64,000 nucleotides of DNA from an uncultured Alphaproteobacteria bacterium (GCA_902571865.1 CACGDO010000001.1:82315-146314), one strand, 5' to 3'. Shown: positions 30,536-53,949, numbered from the stretch's first letter. The notes: a model not told the origin generated them from the sequence alone. Numbers and translations are program-made.

Positions 30536-30637
30536 AACCGTAGGTAATTCAATATTATTTTATATATGCAAAAAATGCATATCAAATAAGTATGAAATTC
30601 ATTTTTAAAAATAAATAAATTTTATTATTAAAATTTC

Positions 30638-30690
30638 ATCGTTCATTTTGAATAATTCAAAACGGAAGTAAACGAAAGTTGAAGGAACGC
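30638..30690 (+). ncRNA. glnA-type glutamine riboswitch aptamer 1
   Basis: AUCGUUC-A-[UUUUGAA/UUCAAAA]-CGGAAGUA-[AAC GAAA GUU]-GAAG-GAACGC. P1 is CGUUC/GAACG, with the GGAAGUA and GAAG junctions of the glnA motif. Confidence 0.9.
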
Positions 30691-30704
30691 ATGCAAGTTA
30701 TTAA

Positions 30705-30756
30705 ATCGTTCAATCTGTCTTAACGGATCGGAAGTAGGCTAAAGCTGAAGGAACGC
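30705..30756 (+). ncRNA. glnA-type glutamine riboswitch aptamer 2 (tandem)
   Basis: Same P1 and junction strings as aptamer 1, with different but pairing P2 (AUCUGU/ACGGAU) and P3 (GGC/GCU). Confidence 0.9.
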
Positions 30757-30884
30757 GGATCTTATTATTAATTTCCATAGCTAAGCATGAATTATAACGG
30801 ATAAGAAAGGTTTGTTATAACTATGGTTAAAAAGTTAGATAATAAAAAGATTATCTATTCAAATCTCAAGAGGTTTACTCCCTA

Positions 30885-32291
30885 ATGTTTAATGAAATGT
30901 ATCAATCTGAATCAGTTATAAGAAATCATTATAACAATATTAATGATTGGTTAGATCAAATGACTTCAAAAGTTATTCTTGAAAAGAATGCTGAAGCTGA
31001 AACTCATTTTAGAAATATTGGAATTACATTTTCTACCAATAACGAAACTGCAAGAGAAAGAATTATTCCGTTTGATTTAATTCCAAGGATATTTACCTAT
31101 ACTGAATGGTTAAGATTAGAAAGAGGAGTAATCCAAAGAGCTAAAGCACTTAATGCGTTTCTTGCTGATATTTATAATCAAGGTGAAATAATAAAAGCTA
31201 GTATAATTCCTAAAGAAATTATTTACAAAAAAAAATCTTTTGAACCTTCCATGTTTGGTTTTTCTCCTCCTAGAGATATCTATAGTCCTATAATTGGTAT
31301 TGATTTAGTAAGAACAAGTCCCAATGATTATTTTGTTTTAGAAGATAATTGTCGAACACCTAGTGGTGTTTCTTACATGCTAGAAAATAGAGAAATAATG
31401 ATGCGAATGTTTCCTGATTTATTTCACAACAACAGAGTAACACCAATAGATGACTACCCAACAAGACTTTTGCAAACCTTGATGAGTTTAGCTCCTATTA
31501 AATGTGAAAATCCAGAACCAGTATGTGTGTTACTTACACCTGGTCCTTTAAATAGCGCTTATTACGAACATAGTTTTTTATCAGATCAAATGGGTATTGA
31601 AATGGTTGAATCAACAGATTTATTTGTTGAAGGAAAATATCTTTATATGAAAACAGTTGATGGTCCAAAAAGAGTAGATGTTGTTTACAGAAGAATAGAT
31701 GACGATTTTTTAGATCCTCTATGTTTTAATCCTCAGTCTGTAATTGGTATTCCAGGAATTATGGATGTTTATAGAACAGGTGGTGTCAATATCTGTTCAG
31801 CTCCTGGAGCAGGCATAGCTGATGACAAAGCAATTTATATTTATGTACCTGAGATGATCAAATTTTATTTAGGCGAACAACCAATCTTAGATAATGTTGA
31901 AACATGGAATTGCGAAAAGGAACAAGAATTAAAATATGTTTTAGATAATATAAATGAACTTGTCGTAAAAGAGGTTGATGGATCTGGAGGTTATGGGATG
32001 TTAATAGGTCCAAAATCTTCTAAATCCTCTATAGATGAATTTAAAACAAAACTCTCAACAAATCCAAAAGGATATATAGCTCAACCTTTACTTGATCTTT
32101 CATTTTCACCAACACTAATCAAAAATCAAGTTGAGGGAAGAAGGGTGGATTTACGTCCATTTTGTTTAATTGGAGAGCAAGCTCAATTAAGTTCTGGTGG
32201 TTTAACTAGAGTTGCAATGAATGAAGGTTCGTTTGTTGTAAATTCTAGCCAAGGAGGTGGTGTGAAAGACACATGGGTTTTGGCTGAGTGA
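30885..32291 (+). CDS. Circularly permuted type 2 ATP-grasp protein
   Basis: IPFDLIPR, GIDLVR, VLEDNCRTPSGVSY, TPGPLNSAYYEH, YRRIDDDFLDPL, SGGYG, DLRPF and NSSQGGGVKDTWV. Confidence 0.93.
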   Translation: MFNEMYQSESVIRNHYNNINDWLDQMTSKVILEKNAEAETHFRNIGITFSTNNETARERIIPFDLIPRIFTYTEWLRLERGVIQRAKALNAFLADIYNQGEIIKASIIPKEIIYKKKSFEPSMFGFSPPRDIYSPIIGIDLVRTSPNDYFVLEDNCRTPSGVSYMLENREIMMRMFPDLFHNNRVTPIDDYPTRLLQTLMSLAPIKCENPEPVCVLLTPGPLNSAYYEHSFLSDQMGIEMVESTDLFVEGKYLYMKTVDGPKRVDVVYRRIDDDFLDPLCFNPQSVIGIPGIMDVYRTGGVNICSAPGAGIADDKAIYIYVPEMIKFYLGEQPILDNVETWNCEKEQELKYVLDNINELVVKEVDGSGGYGMLIGPKSSKSSIDEFKTKLSTNPKGYIAQPLLDLSFSPTLIKNQVEGRRVDLRPFCLIGEQAQLSSGGLTRVAMNEGSFVVNSSQGGGVKDTWVLAE

Positions 32292-32300
32292 GGAATAACA

Positions 32301-33236
32301 ATGTTAAGTAGAACTGCTGAATATCTATATTGGATCAGTCGTTATATGGAAAGAGCTGAAACTACAGCCAGGCTTTTGGATGTTGGTTATAGAATGTCTC
32401 TTTTTCCAAATCCAAGTGGTTATAATAATGAATGGGAATCAGTTTTATCTGCTGCTGGAGCAATTGAGGGATATAAAAATAAATATAATACAATTGAACA
32501 GAAAAATGTGGAAGACTATTTGTTTTTTGATGAAAGTAATCCTTCATCTGTTTACAATTGTATTCTTAATGCACGAAATAACGCACTAGTAGTTAGAACT
32601 TCCTTTACCCCTGAGTCTTGGTTAGCAGTTAATAAAACTTATCAAGAGATGCTAAACTTAAAAGAAAAAAAATTTACAAAATCTGATTTACCTGACCTGA
32701 CTGAGTGGACAATAGAACAAGTAAACTTATTTAGAGGATCATTAAGTTCTTTGCTTAGAAATGATGGTTATAATTTTCTTTTTCTTGGTTTATTTATTGA
32801 GAGGGCTGATAATTCTGCCAGATTACTAGATGTAAAGTATTTTGTTTTATTACCTAAGCCTCAATATATAGGTGGTAATATCGATAATATGCAATGGAGT
32901 ATATTGCTTCGCTCTTTATCTTCTTTTAGAGCATTTAGATGGGCATACGATGGTAATATTACCGCAACTAAAATTGCTGACTTTTTAGTTTTAAATAATA
33001 ATTGTCCTAGATCTTTAAGTTTTTGTATTCAGAATATTGTTAAACATTTAACTAACCTAACATGCAGTCCAGAAAAAGTTGGAAGAATCTATAATAATTT
33101 AAAAGATCTAAATACTAAAATTCAAGAAGAAAAAATAGAAACTATTGTTGAATATGGACTTCATCAATTTGTAACACAATTTATTAGAAAAATATCAAGT
33201 GTTGATAACGAAATACATAAGGAGTTTTTTAATTAA
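32301..33236 (+). CDS. Alpha-E domain protein
   Basis: MLSRTAEYLYWISRYMERAE, IERADNSARLLDVKY and PRSLSFC. Confidence 0.93.
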   Translation: MLSRTAEYLYWISRYMERAETTARLLDVGYRMSLFPNPSGYNNEWESVLSAAGAIEGYKNKYNTIEQKNVEDYLFFDESNPSSVYNCILNARNNALVVRTSFTPESWLAVNKTYQEMLNLKEKKFTKSDLPDLTEWTIEQVNLFRGSLSSLLRNDGYNFLFLGLFIERADNSARLLDVKYFVLLPKPQYIGGNIDNMQWSILLRSLSSFRAFRWAYDGNITATKIADFLVLNNNCPRSLSFCIQNIVKHLTNLTCSPEKVGRIYNNLKDLNTKIQEEKIETIVEYGLHQFVTQFIRKISSVDNEIHKEFFN

Positions 33237-33237
33237 T

Positions 33238-34077
33238 ATGGAACTAATAATCGAACACACAACTAAGTATGAATATAAAAATCCAGTTGCGGGATTAATT
33301 CAAACCACTAAACTGCATCCTTCAGAATATAATGGTCTTAAAATTTTAGAGTGGAATGTCCATAACGACTCAGCCAAAAAATCAAAAATTTATCAGGATG
33401 GTGAGGCTAATAATATTCAAAGTTTTACAAATACAAACAAGGTGAAAAAAATACAATTTACAGTTCTTGGAAAAGTTGAAACATTTGATACAAAAGGAAT
33501 TTACCAGAGTTCTTCTGATAAAATAGATCCTTTAGTTTACTTAAGAGAATCAAATTTAACAAAAGCAAATGTGGATATAAAAAATTTAGCTATTGAAGCT
33601 AAAAATGGTTTTAATGAAAATGAAAATCTAGAAATATCTCATAATCTGATGAATCTAGTAGCTGAAAAAATTGAATACAAACCTTTAACGACAAATAATC
33701 AAACAACAGCCATTGAAGCATTTAATCAGAAAAAGGGAGTCTGTCAGGATCAAGCACATATTATGATTGCCGCAGCAAAAACTTTAGGAATACCTGCTAG
33801 ATACGTAAATGGTTATATGCATAACAATTCGCATTCTTCAGAATTTCAATCTACACATGCATGGGCAGAATTTTATATAAATGACTTAGGTTGGGTGGGA
33901 TTTGATCCTACAAATAAGTGCAGTCCAGATGAAAGATATGTACGTGTTTCTTGTGGACTTGATGCAAGTTACGCATCACCTATTAAAGGTGTTTTTTATG
34001 GAAATATTAATAATGATGCTGTGATAGAAAACTTAGATATTCATGTACAGACATTGGAAAATAATTCTCAACAATAA
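33238..34077 (+). CDS. Transglutaminase-like protein
   Basis: Triad GVCQD (C), HAWAE (H) and GFDPTN (D). ATG at 33238. Confidence 0.92.
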   Translation: MELIIEHTTKYEYKNPVAGLIQTTKLHPSEYNGLKILEWNVHNDSAKKSKIYQDGEANNIQSFTNTNKVKKIQFTVLGKVETFDTKGIYQSSSDKIDPLVYLRESNLTKANVDIKNLAIEAKNGFNENENLEISHNLMNLVAEKIEYKPLTTNNQTTAIEAFNQKKGVCQDQAHIMIAAAKTLGIPARYVNGYMHNNSHSSEFQSTHAWAEFYINDLGWVGFDPTNKCSPDERYVRVSCGLDASYASPIKGVFYGNINNDAVIENLDIHVQTLENNSQQ

Positions 34078-34131: not shown

Positions 34132-34494
34132 ATGTTTCAAAATAAAAAACAACTTCAGTATTTATGGATTTTTAAACCTGAACTTAATGATATTGCAAAA
34201 AGAATTGCAGAAGATCATACAAAATGGATGAAGGAAACACATACAAAAGAAGGTGATAAAGCACTTCTAATGTTAAATTGGTCTATAGGACCTGAATTCA
34301 AAGATGGAAATAAAACAGGCAATTTGTCTCTAATCTTAACAGAGCTTTATGAAAGTCAAGCAGGAATAGATAATCATTTTGAGCAAGCACAAAAAAATGG
34401 CGCATCTTTTAGAGATGATTTTAGTGATTTTGAAAGTAAATGTGAGAATTTAGTAAAAATTAATAGTTCAGATATTATCCATTCAATGTGGTAA
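34132..34494 (+). CDS. Hypothetical protein (120 aa)
   Basis: Strong AAGGAGG RBS; soluble alpha/beta-like sequence. Confidence 0.8.
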   Translation: MFQNKKQLQYLWIFKPELNDIAKRIAEDHTKWMKETHTKEGDKALLMLNWSIGPEFKDGNKTGNLSLILTELYESQAGIDNHFEQAQKNGASFRDDFSDFESKCENLVKINSSDIIHSMW

Positions 34495-47541: not shown

Positions 47542-47618
47542 GTGCCCGTAGCTCAGTAGGATAGAGCACCAGATTCCTAATCTGGGGGCCGCATGTTCGA
47601 ATCATGCCGGGCACGCCA
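47542..47618 (+). tRNA. tRNA-Arg(CCT), CCA encoded
   Basis: Acceptor stem GTGCCCG/CGGGCAC, D-stem GCTC/GAGC, anticodon arm CCAGA-TTCCTAA-TCTGG, T-arm GCATG-TTCGAAT-CATGC, then G-CCA. Confidence 0.96.
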
Positions 47619-49147: not shown

Positions 49148-49942
49148 ATGGATAAACTACTCCAAAGATCAAATGGAAAAATAGACATAGAAATATTAGA
49201 TAATGATTTTTCAAAATTTTTTCAAAGCGGTTGTTGTAAAATCTTAAATCCAAAAAATTATAATGAATTTAAAGAATTAGTTTTAATTAATACTTCTGGA
49301 GGCATTACTTGTAATGATAATATTGAAATTAATGCTATTATTAATAATTCTCAATTGAGTTTTTGTACTCAAGCTGCAGAAAAAATTTATGCAGGAATTG
49401 GAGACCCAGCTAGAGTAGAAATAAATATTAATTTAAATAATTCTACTATGTATTGGTTACCAAAAGAATTAATTTTATTTGATAATTCAAAACTAAGAAG
49501 AAATATCAATATTAATCTATTAGATAATTCTAATTTGATTTTTTGTGAAACAACAATTTTTGGAAGAAAAGCTATGTCTGAAAAAATTAAAAATATTTCT
49601 TTTTCTGATCAATGGAAAATTTATTCAAATTCTTCTATAAAGCATTTTGAAGCAATTAATATTAAAGGATCAATGATTGATAATTTCAACAACAATTACA
49701 CTTTTTCTAATCAATCATCTTTATCAACAATATTAATTTTTGGTGATATTGTTCATCAACTAGAGTCTGTATTAAGAAAAGTTAAAAAAAACGTAGGAAA
49801 TCACTATTGTGAAATGACAAAATTTGATGATAAAATTATCATTAGATGCTTAGCAGATGATAATTATGATTTAAAAAAAACACTAAATATTATTATGAAA
49901 AATGTAATAAATGATAAACTACCAAAAAGTTGGGATCTATAA
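49148..49942 (+). CDS. ureD: Urease accessory protein UreD
   Basis: INTSGG, TQAAEKIY and WLPKE; first gene of the urease cluster. Confidence 0.9.
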   Translation: MDKLLQRSNGKIDIEILDNDFSKFFQSGCCKILNPKNYNEFKELVLINTSGGITCNDNIEINAIINNSQLSFCTQAAEKIYAGIGDPARVEININLNNSTMYWLPKELILFDNSKLRRNININLLDNSNLIFCETTIFGRKAMSEKIKNISFSDQWKIYSNSSIKHFEAINIKGSMIDNFNNNYTFSNQSSLSTILIFGDIVHQLESVLRKVKKNVGNHYCEMTKFDDKIIIRCLADDNYDLKKTLNIIMKNVINDKLPKSWDL

Positions 49943-50245
49943 ATGAAATTAACACCAAGAGAAAAAGATAAGTTGATGGTCAGTATGGCAGCTAACGTTG
50001 CTAGAAAACGTCTAGAAAGAGGTGTTAAACTTAACTACCCAGAAGCTATAGCCTTGATAACAGATTTTGTCATAGAAGGCGCAAGAGATGGAAAAATGGT
50101 ATCAGAATTAATGGAAACAGGAGCTCACGTAGTAAAAAAAGAAGATTGTATGGATGGTATTCCAGATATGATTCCAGAAGTACAGGTTGAAGCTACATTT
50201 TCAGATGGAACAAAATTAGTAACAGTACATAAACCGATTAGATAA
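49943..50245 (+). CDS. ureA: Urease gamma subunit
   Basis: [17 protein letters not shown] and [14 protein letters not shown]. Confidence 0.98.
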
Positions 50246-50553
50246 TGAAACCTGGAGAAATAATAACAAAGCAAAATAGTGATATTAGTTTGAACGATGA
50301 AAGACAATCTATAACTTTAAAAGTTTCAAATAGTGGAGATCGGCCAATTCAAGTTGGTAGTCATTATCATTTTGCAGAAACAAATGAATATTTAAAATTT
50401 GATAGAGAAAAATCAAATGGTATGCGTTTAGATATACCATCTGGTACAGCTGTTCGGTTTGAACCTGGTCAATCAAAAGATGTAGAATTAATTCAAATTT
50501 CTGGAAATAGAAAGATATTTGGTTTTAATAAAAAAGTTATGGGTCAATTGTAA
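50245..50553 (+). CDS. ureB: Urease beta subunit
   Basis: [13 protein letters not shown] and [13 protein letters not shown]. Confidence 0.98.
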
Positions 50554-52259
50554 TGAAAAAAATAAAAAGAGAAGCTTATGCCGATATGTATGGGCCAACA
50601 ACTGGTGATAAGGTTAGACTTGCTGACACTGAATTATTTATTGAAGTGGAAAAAGATTTAACAACGTATGGAGAAGAAGTAAAATTTGGTGGTGGTAAAG
50701 TTATTCGAGATGGAATGGGGCAGTCTCAAGTATCTCGTAAAGATGGTGCTGTTGATACAGTTATAACAAATGCTTTAATAGTAGATGTAAATGGAATTTA
50801 TAAAGCTGATATTGGTCTTAAGGATGGATTAATTTATGAAATTGGAAAAGCAGGTAATCCAGATACACAACCCAATGTAAATATTATTATTGGACCTGGA
50901 ACAGAAATAATTGCTGGTGAAGGTAAAATTATAACAGCTGGCGGATTTGACAGTCATATACATTTTATTTGTCCTCAGCAAATAGATGATGCACTTCATT
51001 CAGGTATTACAACAATGTTGGGAGGAGGAACTGGTCCTGCACATGGTACTTTAGCTACAACAGTTACACCTGGACCATGGCATATAGAAAGAATGATACA
51101 ATCTGCAGATGCTTTTTCTATGAACTTGGCTTTTGCTGGTAAAGGAAATAGTTCATTGTCTCATGCACTTGAAGAACAAGTTATTGCTGGTGCAAGCTCA
51201 CTAAAATTACATGAAGATTGGGGTACAACCCCAGCAGCAATAGATAATTGTTTAAATGTAGCTGATGATCATGACATTCAAGTAATGATTCATACAGATA
51301 CGTTAAATGAAAGTGGATTTGTCGAAAGTACAATTAAAGCAATTAATGGGCGAACAATTCACGCTTTTCATACTGAAGGAGCTGGTGGGGGGCATGCACC
51401 TGATATAATTAAAGTATGTGGAGAACAGTATGTTATTCCGTCATCCACAAATCCAACAAGACCATACACAGTTAATACAGTTGAAGAACATTTAGATATG
51501 TTAATGGTTTGCCATCACTTAGATAAATCAATACCTGAAGACGTTGCTTTTGCTGAAAGTCGAATTCGAAAGGAAACAATTGCAGCGGAAGATATACTGC
51601 ATGACATGGGTGCTTTTTCTATTATTGCTTCTGATAGTCAAGCCATGGGCCGTGTTGGCGAAGTTATTATTAGAACTTGGCAAACAGCACATAAGATGAA
51701 AGTTCAACGCGGACAATTAAAAGAAGAGCAGGGAAATAACGACAATGTACGTGTTAAAAGATACATTGCTAAATATACAATTAATCCTGCAATTGCCCAT
51801 GGTATTTCTGATCATATTGGAAGTATCGAAAAAAATAAACGTGCTGATATTGTTATTTGGGATACTGCTTTTTTTGGTGTTAAACCTGAAATGGTATTAC
51901 AAGGTGGAAGTATTGCTTGTGCACAAATGGGTGATCCTAATGCATCTATACCAACACCACAGCCAGTGTACTCCAGACCAATGTTTTCTTCTTATGGAAA
52001 ATCATTAGAAAAATCTACTGCCACCTTTGTAAGTAAAGTTTCTTTAGATAAAGATTCATTTAAAAACTCTGGAGTGAGTAAATCTCTATTACCAGTTAAA
52101 AATATTAGAAAAATTTCTAAAAAAGATATGGTATTAAATGATTATTGTCCAAAAATAGAAGTTAACCCAGAAACTTATGAAGTTTTAGCAGATGGTGAAT
52201 TAATTACTTGTGATCCAGCTAAAACACTACCTTTAGCTCAACGTTATTTTATGTACTAA
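50553..52259 (+). CDS. ureC: Urease alpha subunit
   Basis: [38 protein letters not shown] and SDSQAMGR. Confidence 0.99.
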
Positions 52260-52260
52260 A

Positions 52261-52704
52261 ATGAATACTTCATTCAAAATTATTCATCACAATAATGATA
52301 AAGAAGTATTTGATGAAATTTCACTATCTTATGAAGAAAGATTTATTCGTAGAAAAAAGCTTATAGCAAATAATGGTACTGAATTTTTAGTTAATCTTGA
52401 AGAAACCGTCAGTGTTGATGAAAATCATTATTTTGAATTAGACAATGGAAAATTAATTAAAGTTATATCTAAAGAAGAAAATTTAATTGAAATAACGGGA
52501 GATAGTTTAAAGCAAATCATATGGCACATAGGAAATAGACATCTGCCATGTCAAATTGAAGAAAACAGAATTCTTATTCAAGATGATGCTGTAATTCTTG
52601 ATATGGTTCTTAAATTATACGGAAATGTAAAAAAAGTTTTTGAAAAATTTAAACCTGAAGGTGGTGCTTATGGTATGGGCAGAACACATAGCCACAAACA
52701 TTAA
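52261..52704 (+). CDS. ureE: Urease accessory protein UreE
   Basis: WHIGNRHLP, FKPEGGAY and a short His tail HSHKH. Confidence 0.93.
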   Translation: MNTSFKIIHHNNDKEVFDEISLSYEERFIRRKKLIANNGTEFLVNLEETVSVDENHYFELDNGKLIKVISKEENLIEITGDSLKQIIWHIGNRHLPCQIEENRILIQDDAVILDMVLKLYGNVKKVFEKFKPEGGAYGMGRTHSHKH

Positions 52705-52705
52705 A

Positions 52706-53341
52706 ATGAAAAAATATAAAGATCCTCATCAAATATTACAAGTATGGTTTTCATCTTCTTTTCCTATTGGTTCTTACGCATACTCTCATGGTTTAGAAGC
52801 TCTGATTGATGATAAAAAAATTAAAAATAATAATGATGTTAAAGAATATTTAGATGCCCTTTTATTTTATGGAACATTAAGAAATGACTATATTTTTATG
52901 AAGTCTATTTACAAAGGTGAGGAAATTAATCAATTAATCTTAGCAAGTGCTTCTTCTAAAGAAAGGCAAATAGAAATGATAGATATGGGAAATTCTTTTC
53001 GTAAAATCATGAAAGATAGTTGGGAATTATCTTTACCTGAAAATACATCATTTATATATTGTTTAGCAAAAGCTGGATTACATTTTAATATTAAGTTTGA
53101 TGATTTAATTAAGTTTTATCTACAATCATTCATTGCTAATTTAATAAATGTATGTGTAAAACATATACCTATGTCTCAAAAAGATGGGCAGAGTCTTAAT
53201 GTTATTTTTATTAATCAAATTCAAGAATTTTTAAGTCATTCAGATAAGCTGACTCTTAAAGATATAGGTACAACTTTTTTTATTGGTGATATTTTTGCTA
53301 TTAAGCATGAATATTTAGACTCAAGGATTTATTTGACGTGA
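52706..53341 (+). CDS. ureF: Urease accessory protein UreF
   Basis: [20 protein letters not shown] and [14 protein letters not shown] at 52706. Confidence 0.9.
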
Positions 53342-53949
53342 ATAATATAAATGGACCTTTAAAAGTTGGTATTGGAGGTGGAATAGGGACTGGAAAAACA
53401 AGTTTAACAGAAGCATTATGTCGTCATTTATCTAAAAAAGTTTCTATGGCAGTTATTTCAAATGATATTTATACAACTGAAGATGCTGAATATCTAATGA
53501 AAGCACAAGTGCTACCTATAGAAAGAATTAAAGGTGTAGAAACTGGTGGATGTCCACATACGGCTATAAGGGAAGATTGTAGTATTAATCTACTTGCAGT
53601 TGATGAAATGAAAAAAAAATTTCCAGATTTAGATTTAATCCTTATTGAATCTGGTGGTGATAATTTAGCTGCAACTTTTAGTCCTGAATTAGTTGATTTA
53701 ACAATTTATATGATTGACGTGGCACAAGGTGCAGACATACCAAGAAAAAAAGCACCGGCAATTAGGAAATCTGATTTACTCGTCATTAATAAAGTTGATC
53801 TAGCTCCATATGTTAATGTTGATTTAGAACAAATGAAACAAGATGTGAATGAAGCCAGAAATGGTTTGCCTTATATTTTTGGTGAAATGAAAAATAATAA
53901 CGGAATTGAAAAAATTTCTGACTTCTTAACTTCTCAAGGTGGATTATAA
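53338..53949 (+). CDS. ureG: Urease accessory GTPase UreG
   Basis: GGIGTGKT P-loop, [20 protein letters not shown] and NKVD. GTG start overlaps the ureF stop. Confidence 0.95.

Follow-up and report, generated by a model that had tools for sequence, protein, structure and literature searches.

Which signal governs the ATP-grasp / Alpha-E / transglutaminase operon, and what does that signal say about the operon's task? Many kinds of bacteria carry this operon, whose substrate has been a question since 2008-2009. One copy lies in a 64,000-nucleotide stretch of DNA from an uncultured Alphaproteobacteria bacterium (GCA_902571865.1, CACGDO010000001.1:82315-146314), here called the window, and a first-pass annotation had placed two glutamine aptamers of the glnA motif ahead of it. 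The features of the locus are collected in Table 1.

Table 1. Features of the glutamine aptamer leader and the three-gene operon, in window coordinates.
Feature	Position	Strand	Details
Palindrome ATATGCA-N5-TGCATAT	30564-30582		putative operator or promoter element of the cassette
Glutamine aptamer 1 (type 1, glnA motif)	30638-30693	+	RF01739 66.0 bits, E 2e-12; P1 30640-44/30685-89; post-P1 C 30690
Inter-aptamer linker CAUGC-A-AGUUAU	30690-30701	+	5' strand of a predicted long-range 'bridge' helix
Glutamine aptamer 2	30705-30759	+	RF01739 60.9 bits, E 6e-11; P1 30707-11/30751-55; post-P1 C 30756
Small hairpin (tentative)	30757-30776	+	aptamer-2 tail GGA paired to UCC on the block's 5' side
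Conserved block UUUCC-AUAGCU-AA-GCAUG-A, 19 nt	30772-30790	+	proposed switching element
Hairpin UUAUAAC...GUUAUAA	30792-30820	+	leader RBS GAAAGG (30805-30810) within and adjoining the loop
Leader ORF, 20 codons, MVKKLDNKKIIYSNLKRFTP	30823-30885	+	TAA stop shares bases with the ATP-grasp ATG (TAATG)
Circularly permuted ATP-grasp amide ligase	30885-32291	+	Pfam CP_ATPgrasp_2, E 4e-153
Alpha-E domain protein	32301-33236	+	Pfam PF04168, E 4e-86, full length
Transglutaminase-like protein, cysteine peptidase fold	33238-34077	+	Transglut_core E 2e-24, Bact_transglu_N E 4e-12

Tandem glutamine aptamers ahead of a three-gene operon

Rfam's cmscan was run over the whole window at the gathering threshold (35 bits for RF01739, Glutamine) and returned exactly two matches to that family, both on the plus strand and both spanning the model from 1 to 53 of 53. 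The first-pass annotation had located both to within 3 nt, and its description of identical P1 stems and junctions with independently varied P2 and P3 stems is borne out. P1 is CGUUC/GAACG in both aptamers and the junctions AUCGUUCA, CGGAAGUA and GAAGGAACGC are the same, while the P2 and P3 stems differ. Across 42 related sequences P1 is invariant in both aptamers, and P2 and P3 of both show 13 pairs with compensatory changes and 98.2% of cells paired, covariation values that none of 500 shuffles reached. Both also have the junction nucleotides that the class conserves, among them the G of CGGAAGUA and the C directly after P1, which form a ligand-dependent long-range pair in the work of Ren et al. 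2015 as related in PMC6212724; sequences of crystallised type-1 glutamine aptamers are found in PMC5393176. By family membership, 30638-30759 is a genuine tandem of type-1 glutamine aptamers, and its two members would be expected to bind L-glutamine.

The two complete aptamers are 11 nt apart (30693 to 30705) and are followed by a single block, a hairpin and a start site. The operon lies on the same strand, with 125 nt between the end of aptamer 2 and the ATG of the ATP-grasp gene, so the distance of about 130 nt given earlier stands. This stretch is not empty: it holds the putative sequestering block, the hairpin and a leader ORF that appears to be coupled to the operon.

Pfam supports the three downstream genes as they had been called and in the same order. 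Gene order together with the CP_ATPgrasp, Alpha-E and Transglut_core domains identifies the operon as an ATP-grasp / Alpha-E / transglutaminase system. The ATP-grasp protein matches the structure PDB 3n6x, a 'putative glutathionylspermidine synthase' (E 3e-174), and the transglutaminase-like protein matches PDB 3isr and 6g49; the search found no solved structural relative of the Alpha-E protein. The Alpha-E gene has a Shine-Dalgarno sequence (SD), GAGGAA, before its ATG, which lies 9 nt past the ATP-grasp stop. For the third gene the mechanical ORF begins at GTG 33199, and the ATG at 33238, with AAGGAG ahead of it, is the likelier start. Its translation contains Cys (GVCQDQ), His (HAWAE) and Asp (GFDPT) motifs, which were read by eye and accompany the Pfam core match. 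The three genes are syntenic in 78 of 80 related loci, and in the other two (L026 and L049) the contig stops before the third gene. After the transglutaminase gene the proteasome-like Anbu gene is absent, so the window holds the three-gene form. Neither Pfam nor NCBIfam has a match for the next ORF (34132-34494, 120 aa); it was rejected as a fourth core member because it is missing from subgroup C, which retains the riboswitch and the three genes.

A leader shared with ammonium transporters

The pairing of tandem aptamers with this operon extends to 26 SAR11-like genome loci (L001-L025 and L041), whose ATP-grasp proteins are at least 86% identical, and to 9 metagenome contigs. More distant copies of the operon, in Pelagibacteraceae and Rhodobacterales, have no such aptamers ahead of them. 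Most metagenome examples of the module were recovered with the block as search key. A search with its 16-nt form returned 120 stretches, of which 43 were true modules with aptamers, 9 of them ahead of ATP-grasp and about 30 ahead of Amt proteins (Pfam PF00909, E 2e-96). The remaining stretches, about 77, were set aside on inspection as chance matches in unrelated, mostly high-GC contigs. One locus, L342, was reached through its Amt protein alone and has the same palindrome, aptamers, linker and block; the matches listed in that protein search were at least 84% identical, and L342 is the only locus added in seeking divergent modules. In viral contigs, the general aptamer pattern gave 120 phage loci, none with an ATP-grasp gene or the block, and the linker-specific pattern found unrelated phage genes only.

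Part for part, the ATP-grasp leader is homologous to the amt leader of the same SAR11-like lineages. A palindrome, TATGCA-N5/6-TGCATA, lies 73-74 nt 5' of the CGTTC of aptamer 1 and is found in most ATP-grasp leaders, in most first-amt leaders and in L342. The linker, whose first C is the post-P1 nucleotide of aptamer 1, is invariant or nearly so in the 42 sequences. There it is 100% complementary to two segments of the block (30777-82 and 30785-89), giving 11 pairs of which one alternates between A-U and G-U. This predicted bridge helix would enclose aptamer 2 and turns up in unconstrained minimum-energy folds. Genuine double changes that restore a pair are absent from it, since neither block nor linker varies. 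A further small hairpin, in which the aptamer-2 tail pairs with the edge of the block, may be real, on weak evidence: its GGA/UCC stem has 3 pairs with 93.7% of cells paired, is predicted in many folds and is disrupted in AGA variants.

The block is nearly invariant in the 26 genome loci, which were found through the protein rather than through the block, and it is predicted to have alternative partners, either the linker or a translation start. In the window, CCAUAG (30775-80) can pair with CUAUGG (30821-26) at the start of the leader ORF. In amt leaders the block pairs with the SD AUGGAGG, where the RNAalifold consensus gives 4 pairs at 100% and individual minimum-energy folds give 7-11 bp. 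In a variant amt paralogue the block has CCAUAA and pairs with the start-codon region UUAUGG; the only differences in this block are at a G-U pair, turned into A-U, and in the bridge's internal loop. In subgroup C the partner is AUG-A-UAG-A-AUGG. The register between block and start varies among subgroups, and the pairing is weak in subgroup B. Rfam has no family for the block, as a permissive search of 30540-30960 gave the two aptamers alone. That the block is a promoter was considered and rejected, because its distance to the following hairpin shifts by 2 nt between subgroups while the block itself stays constant, and because it is complementary to the linker and to start sites.

The hairpin after the block is predicted in all 17 distinct ATP-grasp leaders despite differing stems (AUAACGG/UUUGUUAU, AUAACAG/CUGUUAU and AUAACAAA/UUUGUUAU), and 6 pairs of the equivalent amt hairpin show compensatory changes. 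A conserved hairpin at this place in both kinds of leader would suit a riboswitch that acts on the transcript, through Rho-dependent termination, RNase cleavage or premature termination at the hairpin, with a leader ORF that is incidental or merely protects the RNA. Repressed translation of a leader ORF also commonly exposes RNA to Rho or RNases. However, no terminator-like site was found in 30760-30885, on which ground terminator-based control was rejected, and the leader hairpins lack a trailing U run; the block is complementary specifically to an SD or a start codon in four contexts; and the stop of the leader ORF is kept at the ATP-grasp start. We regard control of the transcript as improbable.

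An ORF of 16-22 codons is kept in 29 of 30 distinct leaders, beginning 45-48 nt 3' of the block and ending between -8 and +10 nt from the ATP-grasp ATG. That gene lacks an SD of its own in two subgroups, and translation of the leader ORF may be coupled to it. Coupling may be dispensable in the subgroup to which the window belongs, where the ATP-grasp gene is preceded by an AAGAGG of its own. Precursor peptide genes often directly precede enzymes of this kind, and a short ORF so consistently ahead of an ATP-grasp ligase could encode a RiPP-like substrate of the ligase, with the riboswitch controlling its supply. Against this, the peptide is not conserved in sequence and is unrelated between subgroups (MVKKLDNKK..., MIGIKFGF..., MIEWLFKK...), only the positions of its start and end being kept; frameshifted (L041) and 3-codon (L286) versions are tolerated; and the Pelagibacteraceae and Rhodobacterales operons have no such leader. 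On the absent sequence conservation the precursor was ruled out as a candidate, and we give the idea very little credence.

Altogether, the comparison of leaders suggests that 30564-30887 is one nitrogen-status control cassette, homologous to the amt cassette of SAR11-like lineages. Because the cassette is common to ammonium transporters, the three-gene system is very probably part of how the cell responds to nitrogen.

Predicted polarity of the switch

The reading that we favor, with moderate confidence, is that the whole cassette is a translational OFF switch, with the operon made at low glutamine and serving nitrogen scavenging. The block would have two mutually exclusive partners. At low glutamine the linker, through the 11-bp bridge helix, and the aptamer-2 tail would hold the block, which would leave the leader start open, so that the leader ORF is translated and ribosomes that finish it start again at the ATP-grasp AUG, which overlaps its stop. 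When glutamine is high, each aptamer would capture its post-P1 C. The C captured by aptamer 1 is the first base of the bridge helix, and the holding helix would be weakened; the C captured by aptamer 2 stands immediately before the block-pairing tail, whose hold would be weakened as well. The freed block would then pair with the leader start (CCAUAG/CUAUGG), and with that start sequestered, translation of the leader and then of the operon would stop. Platform anatomy and the sharing of the cassette with amt thus point to repression by glutamine, and on the same grounds the operon would be expressed under nitrogen limitation, alongside ammonium transporters. The likeliest job of the enzymes would be nitrogen scavenging through ATP-dependent ligation and cleavage of peptides, proteins or amines.

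Folding energies were compared for the two states. Taken as bridge minus sequestered, the difference is -4.3 to -4.9 kcal/mol, falling to -1.3 to -1.9 kcal/mol when the post-P1 C is kept unpaired; in the window the difference goes from -3.2 to -0.1 kcal/mol once that C cannot pair. A crude model of bound and free accessibility, in which the aptamers are masked, gave an almost flat response for the ATP-grasp leader start (0.23 to 0.20) and a clear shift for amt leaders (0.46 to 0.32); we give this model little weight. An 11-bp helix is only slightly perturbed by losing a single C-G pair at its end.

The same cassette could also work as a glutamine ON switch of the cyanobacterial kind, in which ligand-bound aptamer 2 joins linker and block, stabilizes the bridge and frees the start. 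The operon and the linked amt would then be made in nitrogen-replete cells, and the system could build a nitrogen-rich product or export ammonia. Every glutamine riboswitch examined by experiment to date is an ON switch (PMC6212724, PMC6698751). P1 of aptamer 2 lies within the junction that the bridge closes, and a stable P1 should therefore favor the bridge. Moreover, the Amt paralogue SAR11_1310 of 'Ca. P. ubique' is made only in nitrogen-replete cells, and glutamine-activated translation has been proposed for this paralogue (PMC3870248), so the word 'amt' alone leaves the polarity unfixed. However, the bridge begins with the very C that bound aptamer 1 needs (structural role as related in PMC6212724), and in the ON designs of phages and cyanobacteria the tail itself pairs with the SD, with nothing like the additional, inverting block that lies between them here. 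Nitrogen starvation induces the homologous Pseudomonas operons (PMC5666114, PMC8050072), and environmental glnA-motif RNAs also precede glutamine synthetase and GOGAT genes (PMC2864571), where activation by glutamine would be positive feedback. We judge activation rather unlikely, though deserving of attention.

The proposed OFF switch fits the induction of the homologous Pseudomonas operon by nitrogen starvation and argues against the nitrogen store suggested by the first-pass annotation; platform anatomy and sharing with amt fit nitrogen scavenging better than such a store or a polymer built when nitrogen is ample.

Comparison with known systems and meaning

The type-1 riboswitch of gifB in Synechocystis has the same aptamer fold, conserved nucleotides and location in a 5' leader, and its post-P1 nucleotide lies at the interface with the expression platform, as in the window. 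In contrast, the window has two aptamers, a conserved linker, an inverter block and a predicted OFF polarity, and its riboswitch would control the three-gene operon rather than a glutamine synthetase inactivating factor. Genome surveys placed type-1 glutamine riboswitches in cyanobacterial genomes only (PMC6212724); the host of the window is a SAR11-like alphaproteobacterium. Phage tandem glutamine riboswitches in IMG/VR (L096, L113, L149, L172, L191, L193 and L197) likewise have two type-1 aptamers before a start codon, but with a short, non-conserved linker and no block. Their aptamer-2 tail, from the post-P1 C onward, pairs beside the SD, with covariation between CAUCU/AGAUG and CAAUCU/AGAUUG. 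This is probably a direct design that acts as an ON switch, like that proposed for gifB (PMC6212724), and relative to it the SAR11 cassette adds one inverting element.

Tandem glnA RNAs in marine sequences ahead of ammonium transporter, GS, GOGAT and PII genes were described by Weinberg et al. 2010 (PMC2864571), and the modules linked to amt in this analysis probably correspond to those RNAs. In that work's main text and 200 of its 438 supplementary files (the first ones), the gene associations do not include the ATP-grasp operon, and the same material does not describe the linker-block helix, the sequestering block, the palindrome or the coupled leader ORF. No paper in the searched literature pairs a glutamine riboswitch with the ATP-grasp / Alpha-E / transglutaminase operon, which agrees with the earlier impression that the combination was undescribed.

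The P. putida genes PP_2685-2688, an Anbu operon of the system of Iyer et al. 2009, include the same three genes in the same order, and the window's ATP-grasp protein is about 60% identical to alphaproteobacterial copies. The window's operon differs in having no Anbu gene after it and in its probable regulator, an RNA sensor of glutamine where a protein-based response to nitrogen limitation is reported for P. putida. PP_2685-2688 are induced by nitrogen limitation (PMC5666114, PMC6376114, PMC8050072 Table 2), and domains of the operon family co-vary with urea genes in marine metagenomes (PMC3597751). The nitrogen link of the family is thus already known, and the tie of the operon to nitrogen status that was proposed earlier is upheld by the homology with amt leaders.

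A metabolite sensor common to the operon and to ammonium transporters is independent evidence for a role in the nitrogen economy, and with glutamine named as the signal, the biochemical search can concentrate on nitrogen limitation and the substrates that go with it. Glutamine riboswitches are also now located in genomes of bacteria that rank among the commonest in the ocean and that lack the usual PII/NtrBC regulators, and the cassette suggests a first OFF-type platform for this riboswitch class. More tentatively, aptamers, linker and block may form a composite two-input inverter of about 200 nt, a new kind of platform in which the two aptamers would clamp opposite ends of one common anti-sequestering structure. 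This inverter would be the master post-transcriptional regulator of a small SAR11-like nitrogen-limitation regulon of amt and the scavenging three-gene machine. If that is true, the machine would be identified as a nitrogen-scavenging system that recycles protein or amines.

Tandem glutamine aptamers ahead of the three-gene operon

The whole 64-kb window was scanned with Rfam at gathering threshold, and two of the four RNAs found are Glutamine aptamers (RF01739). The first-pass annotation had placed tandem glutamine aptamers ahead of an operon of ATP-grasp, Alpha-E and transglutaminase-like genes, and the scan bears this out: both aptamers score above the gathering score, and the tightly packed genes begin 125 nt 3' of them. 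P1 (CGUUC/GAACG) and the junction sequences are identical in the two aptamers, and the P2 and P3 stems differ. The ATP-grasp protein matches structural-genomics entry 3n6x, a "putative glutathionylspermidine synthase" (E 3e-174); a solved structural relative was also sought for Alpha-E and none was found.

Features of the leader, the operon and related loci (window coordinates unless a locus is named)
Feature	Position	Strand	Evidence or remark
Palindrome TATGCA-N5/6-TGCATA	30564-30582; SAR11-like genome L342 2720-2736
Glutamine aptamer 1	30638-30693	+	RF01739, 66.0 bits, full length, gathering score 35
Linker CAUGC-A(A)-AGUUAU	30690-30701		between the aptamers
Glutamine aptamer 2	30705-30759	+	RF01739, 60.9 bits, full length, gathering score 35
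Block UUUCC-AUAGCU-AA-GCAUG-A	30772-30790		nearly invariant in aligned leaders
Hairpin	30792-30820		stem sequence varies among subgroups, pairing retained; GAAAGG in and adjoining loop
Leader ORF MVKKLDNKKIIYSNLKRFTP	30823-30885		opened by conserved AUG
Circularly permuted ATP-grasp	30885-32291		Pfam E 4e-153
Alpha-E	32301-33236		Pfam E 4e-86
Transglutaminase-like protein	mechanical ORF from GTG 33199; likely start ATG 33238		AAGGAG precedes ATG
tRNA-Arg (CCU)	47542-47618	+	single
Urease cluster, complete ureD-ureG	49148-53949
Urease alpha-subunit gene	50553-52259
"5_ureB_sRNA" match	50706-50985	-	Rfam, 90 bits; antisense within alpha-subunit gene
~120-residue protein MNAEEIIKLKKKALYSS...FFNKSILH...	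amt-bearing loci L205 5289-5651; L342 4373-4732; L319 4735-5094; others		no Pfam match

Relatives of the ATP-grasp protein were searched in one genome per species, which gave 80 loci. Tandem aptamers stand at the same position in 26 of 26 loci whose ATP-grasp is at least 86% identical (L001-L025 and L041), all of them SAR11-like single-cell genomes named "uncultured Alphaproteobacteria" or "Pelagibacteraceae bacterium". The idea that the aptamers accompany the operon across genomes holds for these loci but fails further out: by pattern, aptamers are absent from 17 Pelagibacteraceae loci (73-77% identity) and from Rhodobacterales and other loci (~62%), and Rfam at gathering threshold found none in the 28 loci scanned among those below the 86% class. 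The pairing is kept in one set of lineages only. All three genes are present in 78 of the 80 loci, the contigs of L026 and L049 stopping short of the third. One subgroup retains the riboswitch but lacks the next ORF after the operon (34132-34494), so the conserved unit is the riboswitch plus three genes.

The riboswitch-less Pelagibacteraceae operons (L026-L043) carry another conserved motif, TGTCAATTTGGCAAAGGCAT, ~60-90 nt 5' of the ATP-grasp ATG. It is a partial palindrome (TGTCAA/TTGGCA), a putative protein-binding site that may stand in for the RNA sensor. When L014-L019 were compared, the upstream CDP-alcohol phosphatidyltransferase gene of L018 was 98% identical to the window's and its operon just 89%, which points to recombination at the leader or close to it.

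A cassette common to ammonium transporter genes

An alignment of the leaders of riboswitch-bearing loci was used to define the elements 3' of aptamer 2, and these suggest a structured expression platform in place of an empty 125-nt "spacer". The leader ORF is 16-22 codons long in 29 of 30 distinct leaders; in these it begins 45-48 nt 3' of the block, and its stop falls within -8 to +10 nt of the ATP-grasp AUG, overlapping that start (UAAUG or UGAUG) in leaders of the window's subgroup. Because the leader peptides are unrelated across subgroups and one frameshifted version is tolerated, what is conserved appears to be the act of translation and not its product. Among the distinct leaders inspected, the ATP-grasp AUG has no ribosome-binding site of its own in two subgroups. 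The arrangement looks like the signature of predicted translational coupling.

A metagenome collection was scanned with the block's 16-nt core, and at least 120 stretches matched. Among the matches listed, at least 43 block occurrences have glutamine aptamers upstream, nearly always two and all in low-GC marine contigs; the remaining ones, lacking aptamers, were set aside as chance matches. At least nine of the modules in these listed matches lie upstream of the ATP-grasp operon, and at least about 30 lie ahead of ammonium transporter family (Amt) proteins of 426-438 residues (PF00909, E 2e-96). Leaders of amt genes can be aligned with ATP-grasp leaders over aptamer 1, the inter-aptamer linker, aptamer 2 and the block. 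The SAR11-like genome L342 was found through Amt similarity alone (84% identical) and has the palindrome, aptamers, linker and block, so conservation of the block is not merely an artefact of the search key.

In most module-bearing loci the palindrome lies at a fixed 73-74 nt 5' of aptamer 1, whether the leader is that of ATP-grasp or of a first amt gene; where amt genes come in pairs, the second has no such palindrome. It resembles a transcription-factor site common to the two kinds of leader, and control of the cassette may thus be two-layered, by protein and by RNA.

Six contigs (L237, L275, L210, L241, L303, L319) have tandem amt paralogues, and a separate tandem glutamine riboswitch precedes each of them; in four contigs the linker and block of the second paralogue take a variant form (CCAUAACUACGCAUGA). 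A deletion just 3' of the hairpin has removed the start region of the first amt in L275. The ~120-residue conserved protein is encoded downstream of nearly every riboswitch-controlled amt gene, and in L274 the cassette stands directly ahead of it, the amt gene missing.

Alternative pairing of the block and the polarity of the switch

The block has two predicted, mutually exclusive partners, the linker and the translation start. The linker is complementary to AUAGCU-AA-GCAUG of the block, giving an 11-bp bridge helix that closes around aptamer 2 and is interrupted by a small internal loop. This helix is paired in 100% of 42 sequences and is seen in unconstrained minimum-energy folds; no covariation of its pairs was found in these 42, one pair alternating between A-U and G-U. 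The variant module ahead of the second amt paralogue departs from the usual block in just two ways: a G to A substitution turns the G-U pair into A-U, and an A has become C within the internal loop. In L250 the linker has an A to G change facing a U.

For the second partner, UUUCCAUA(G) of amt leaders pairs with (U)UAUGGAGG, the ribosome-binding site, over 7-11 bp in individual folds, and the RNAalifold consensus pairs CCAU with (A/G)UGG in 22 of 22 sequences. Block CCAUAA of the variant amt is predicted to pair at the start codon, with UUAUGG. For the window the predicted partners are CCAUAG (30775-80) and CUAUGG (30821-26), the latter holding the leader AUG; for subgroup C, CCAU, CUA and CAU are matched with AUG-A-UAG-A-AUGG. 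The G-C pair of the window against the A-U pair of the variant amt is, in the alignment, a compensatory difference between paralogous instances. Since AUAG is used by both helices, they would exclude each other.

By the structural work summarised in PMC6212724 and the crystallised sequences in PMC5393176, glutamine binding joins the second G of CGGAAGUA to the C right after P1 in a long-range pair, melting a short helix attached to P1. In the window the bridge helix opens with the post-P1 C of aptamer 1 (30690), and the post-P1 C of aptamer 2 (30756) is directly 5' of a GGA that pairs with UCC at the block edge. By nearest-neighbour energies the bridge state lies just 4.3-4.9 kcal/mol below the sequestered state, and the gap drops to 1.3-1.9 kcal/mol when the aptamer-1 C is unable to pair (3.2 to 0.1 in the window). 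With a gap this small, shrinking further upon loss of that C, the RNA would be expected to sit close to the balance point of the two states.

Phage tandem glutamine riboswitches, seen in IMG/VR contigs L096, L113, L149, L172, L191, L193 and L197 upstream of a conserved small phage gene (MTKYQ...NPFYP), differ from the SAR11 cassette in having no block. Their aptamer-2 tail, from the same post-P1 C, forms a covarying helix immediately next to the ribosome-binding site (CAUCU/AGAUG versus CAAUCU/AGAUUG). This is the ON design proposed for cyanobacterial gifB, to which the SAR11 cassette adds one element; interposed, the block would invert the direct ON logic.

We are therefore led to suspect that glutamine represses the operon, a reading we hold as probable, at about twice the weight of its opposite. 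The cassette held in common with amt agrees with it, as do the environmental glnA-motif RNAs ahead of glutamine synthetase and GOGAT genes (PMC2864571) and the induction of the homologous Pseudomonas operon on nitrogen starvation (PMC5666114, PMC6376114, PMC8050072). An ON switch is the less probable polarity, with these points in its favour: the glutamine riboswitches tested so far are all ON, a bridge helix without true covariation counts against repression, and in "Ca. P. ubique" one Amt paralogue is produced only in nitrogen-replete cells (PMC3870248).

Novelty and nitrogen context

PMC2864571 already documents the aptamer class, that it occurs in tandem and that it is associated with amt in marine metagenomes; the operon family's nitrogen link is known from Pseudomonas. 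The first-pass annotation had supposed that this riboswitch and operon had not been described together; no report of the pairing was found in the literature searched, and as far as that literature shows it is new, as is a glutamine riboswitch in assembled SAR11-like genomes. A genome survey found the class only in cyanobacteria (PMC6212724). Also new in that literature is the platform anatomy, with predicted roles for the linker-block helix, sequestering block, coupled leader ORF and shared upstream palindrome.

The window's urease cluster lies 15 kb downstream of the operon, and covariation between the operon's domains and urea genes is reported from marine metagenomes (PMC3597751). The "5_ureB_sRNA" match most likely reflects conserved urease coding sequence and not a real small RNA. 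The tRNA-Arg lies between glycosyltransferase-like and amidinotransferase/DDAH-like genes.

For the operon's function the literature offers only predictions, of peptide tagging or synthesis, and the one activity measured in the family is that of a Yersinia homologue, which hydrolyses ATP (PMC6376114). Should induction of the operon accompany that of the ammonium transporters, a role in nitrogen scavenging is more plausible than the nitrogen store that the first-pass annotation had floated. Candidates would be protein or peptide recycling or amine (polyamine) processing, with the transglutaminase-like enzyme possibly releasing ammonia.
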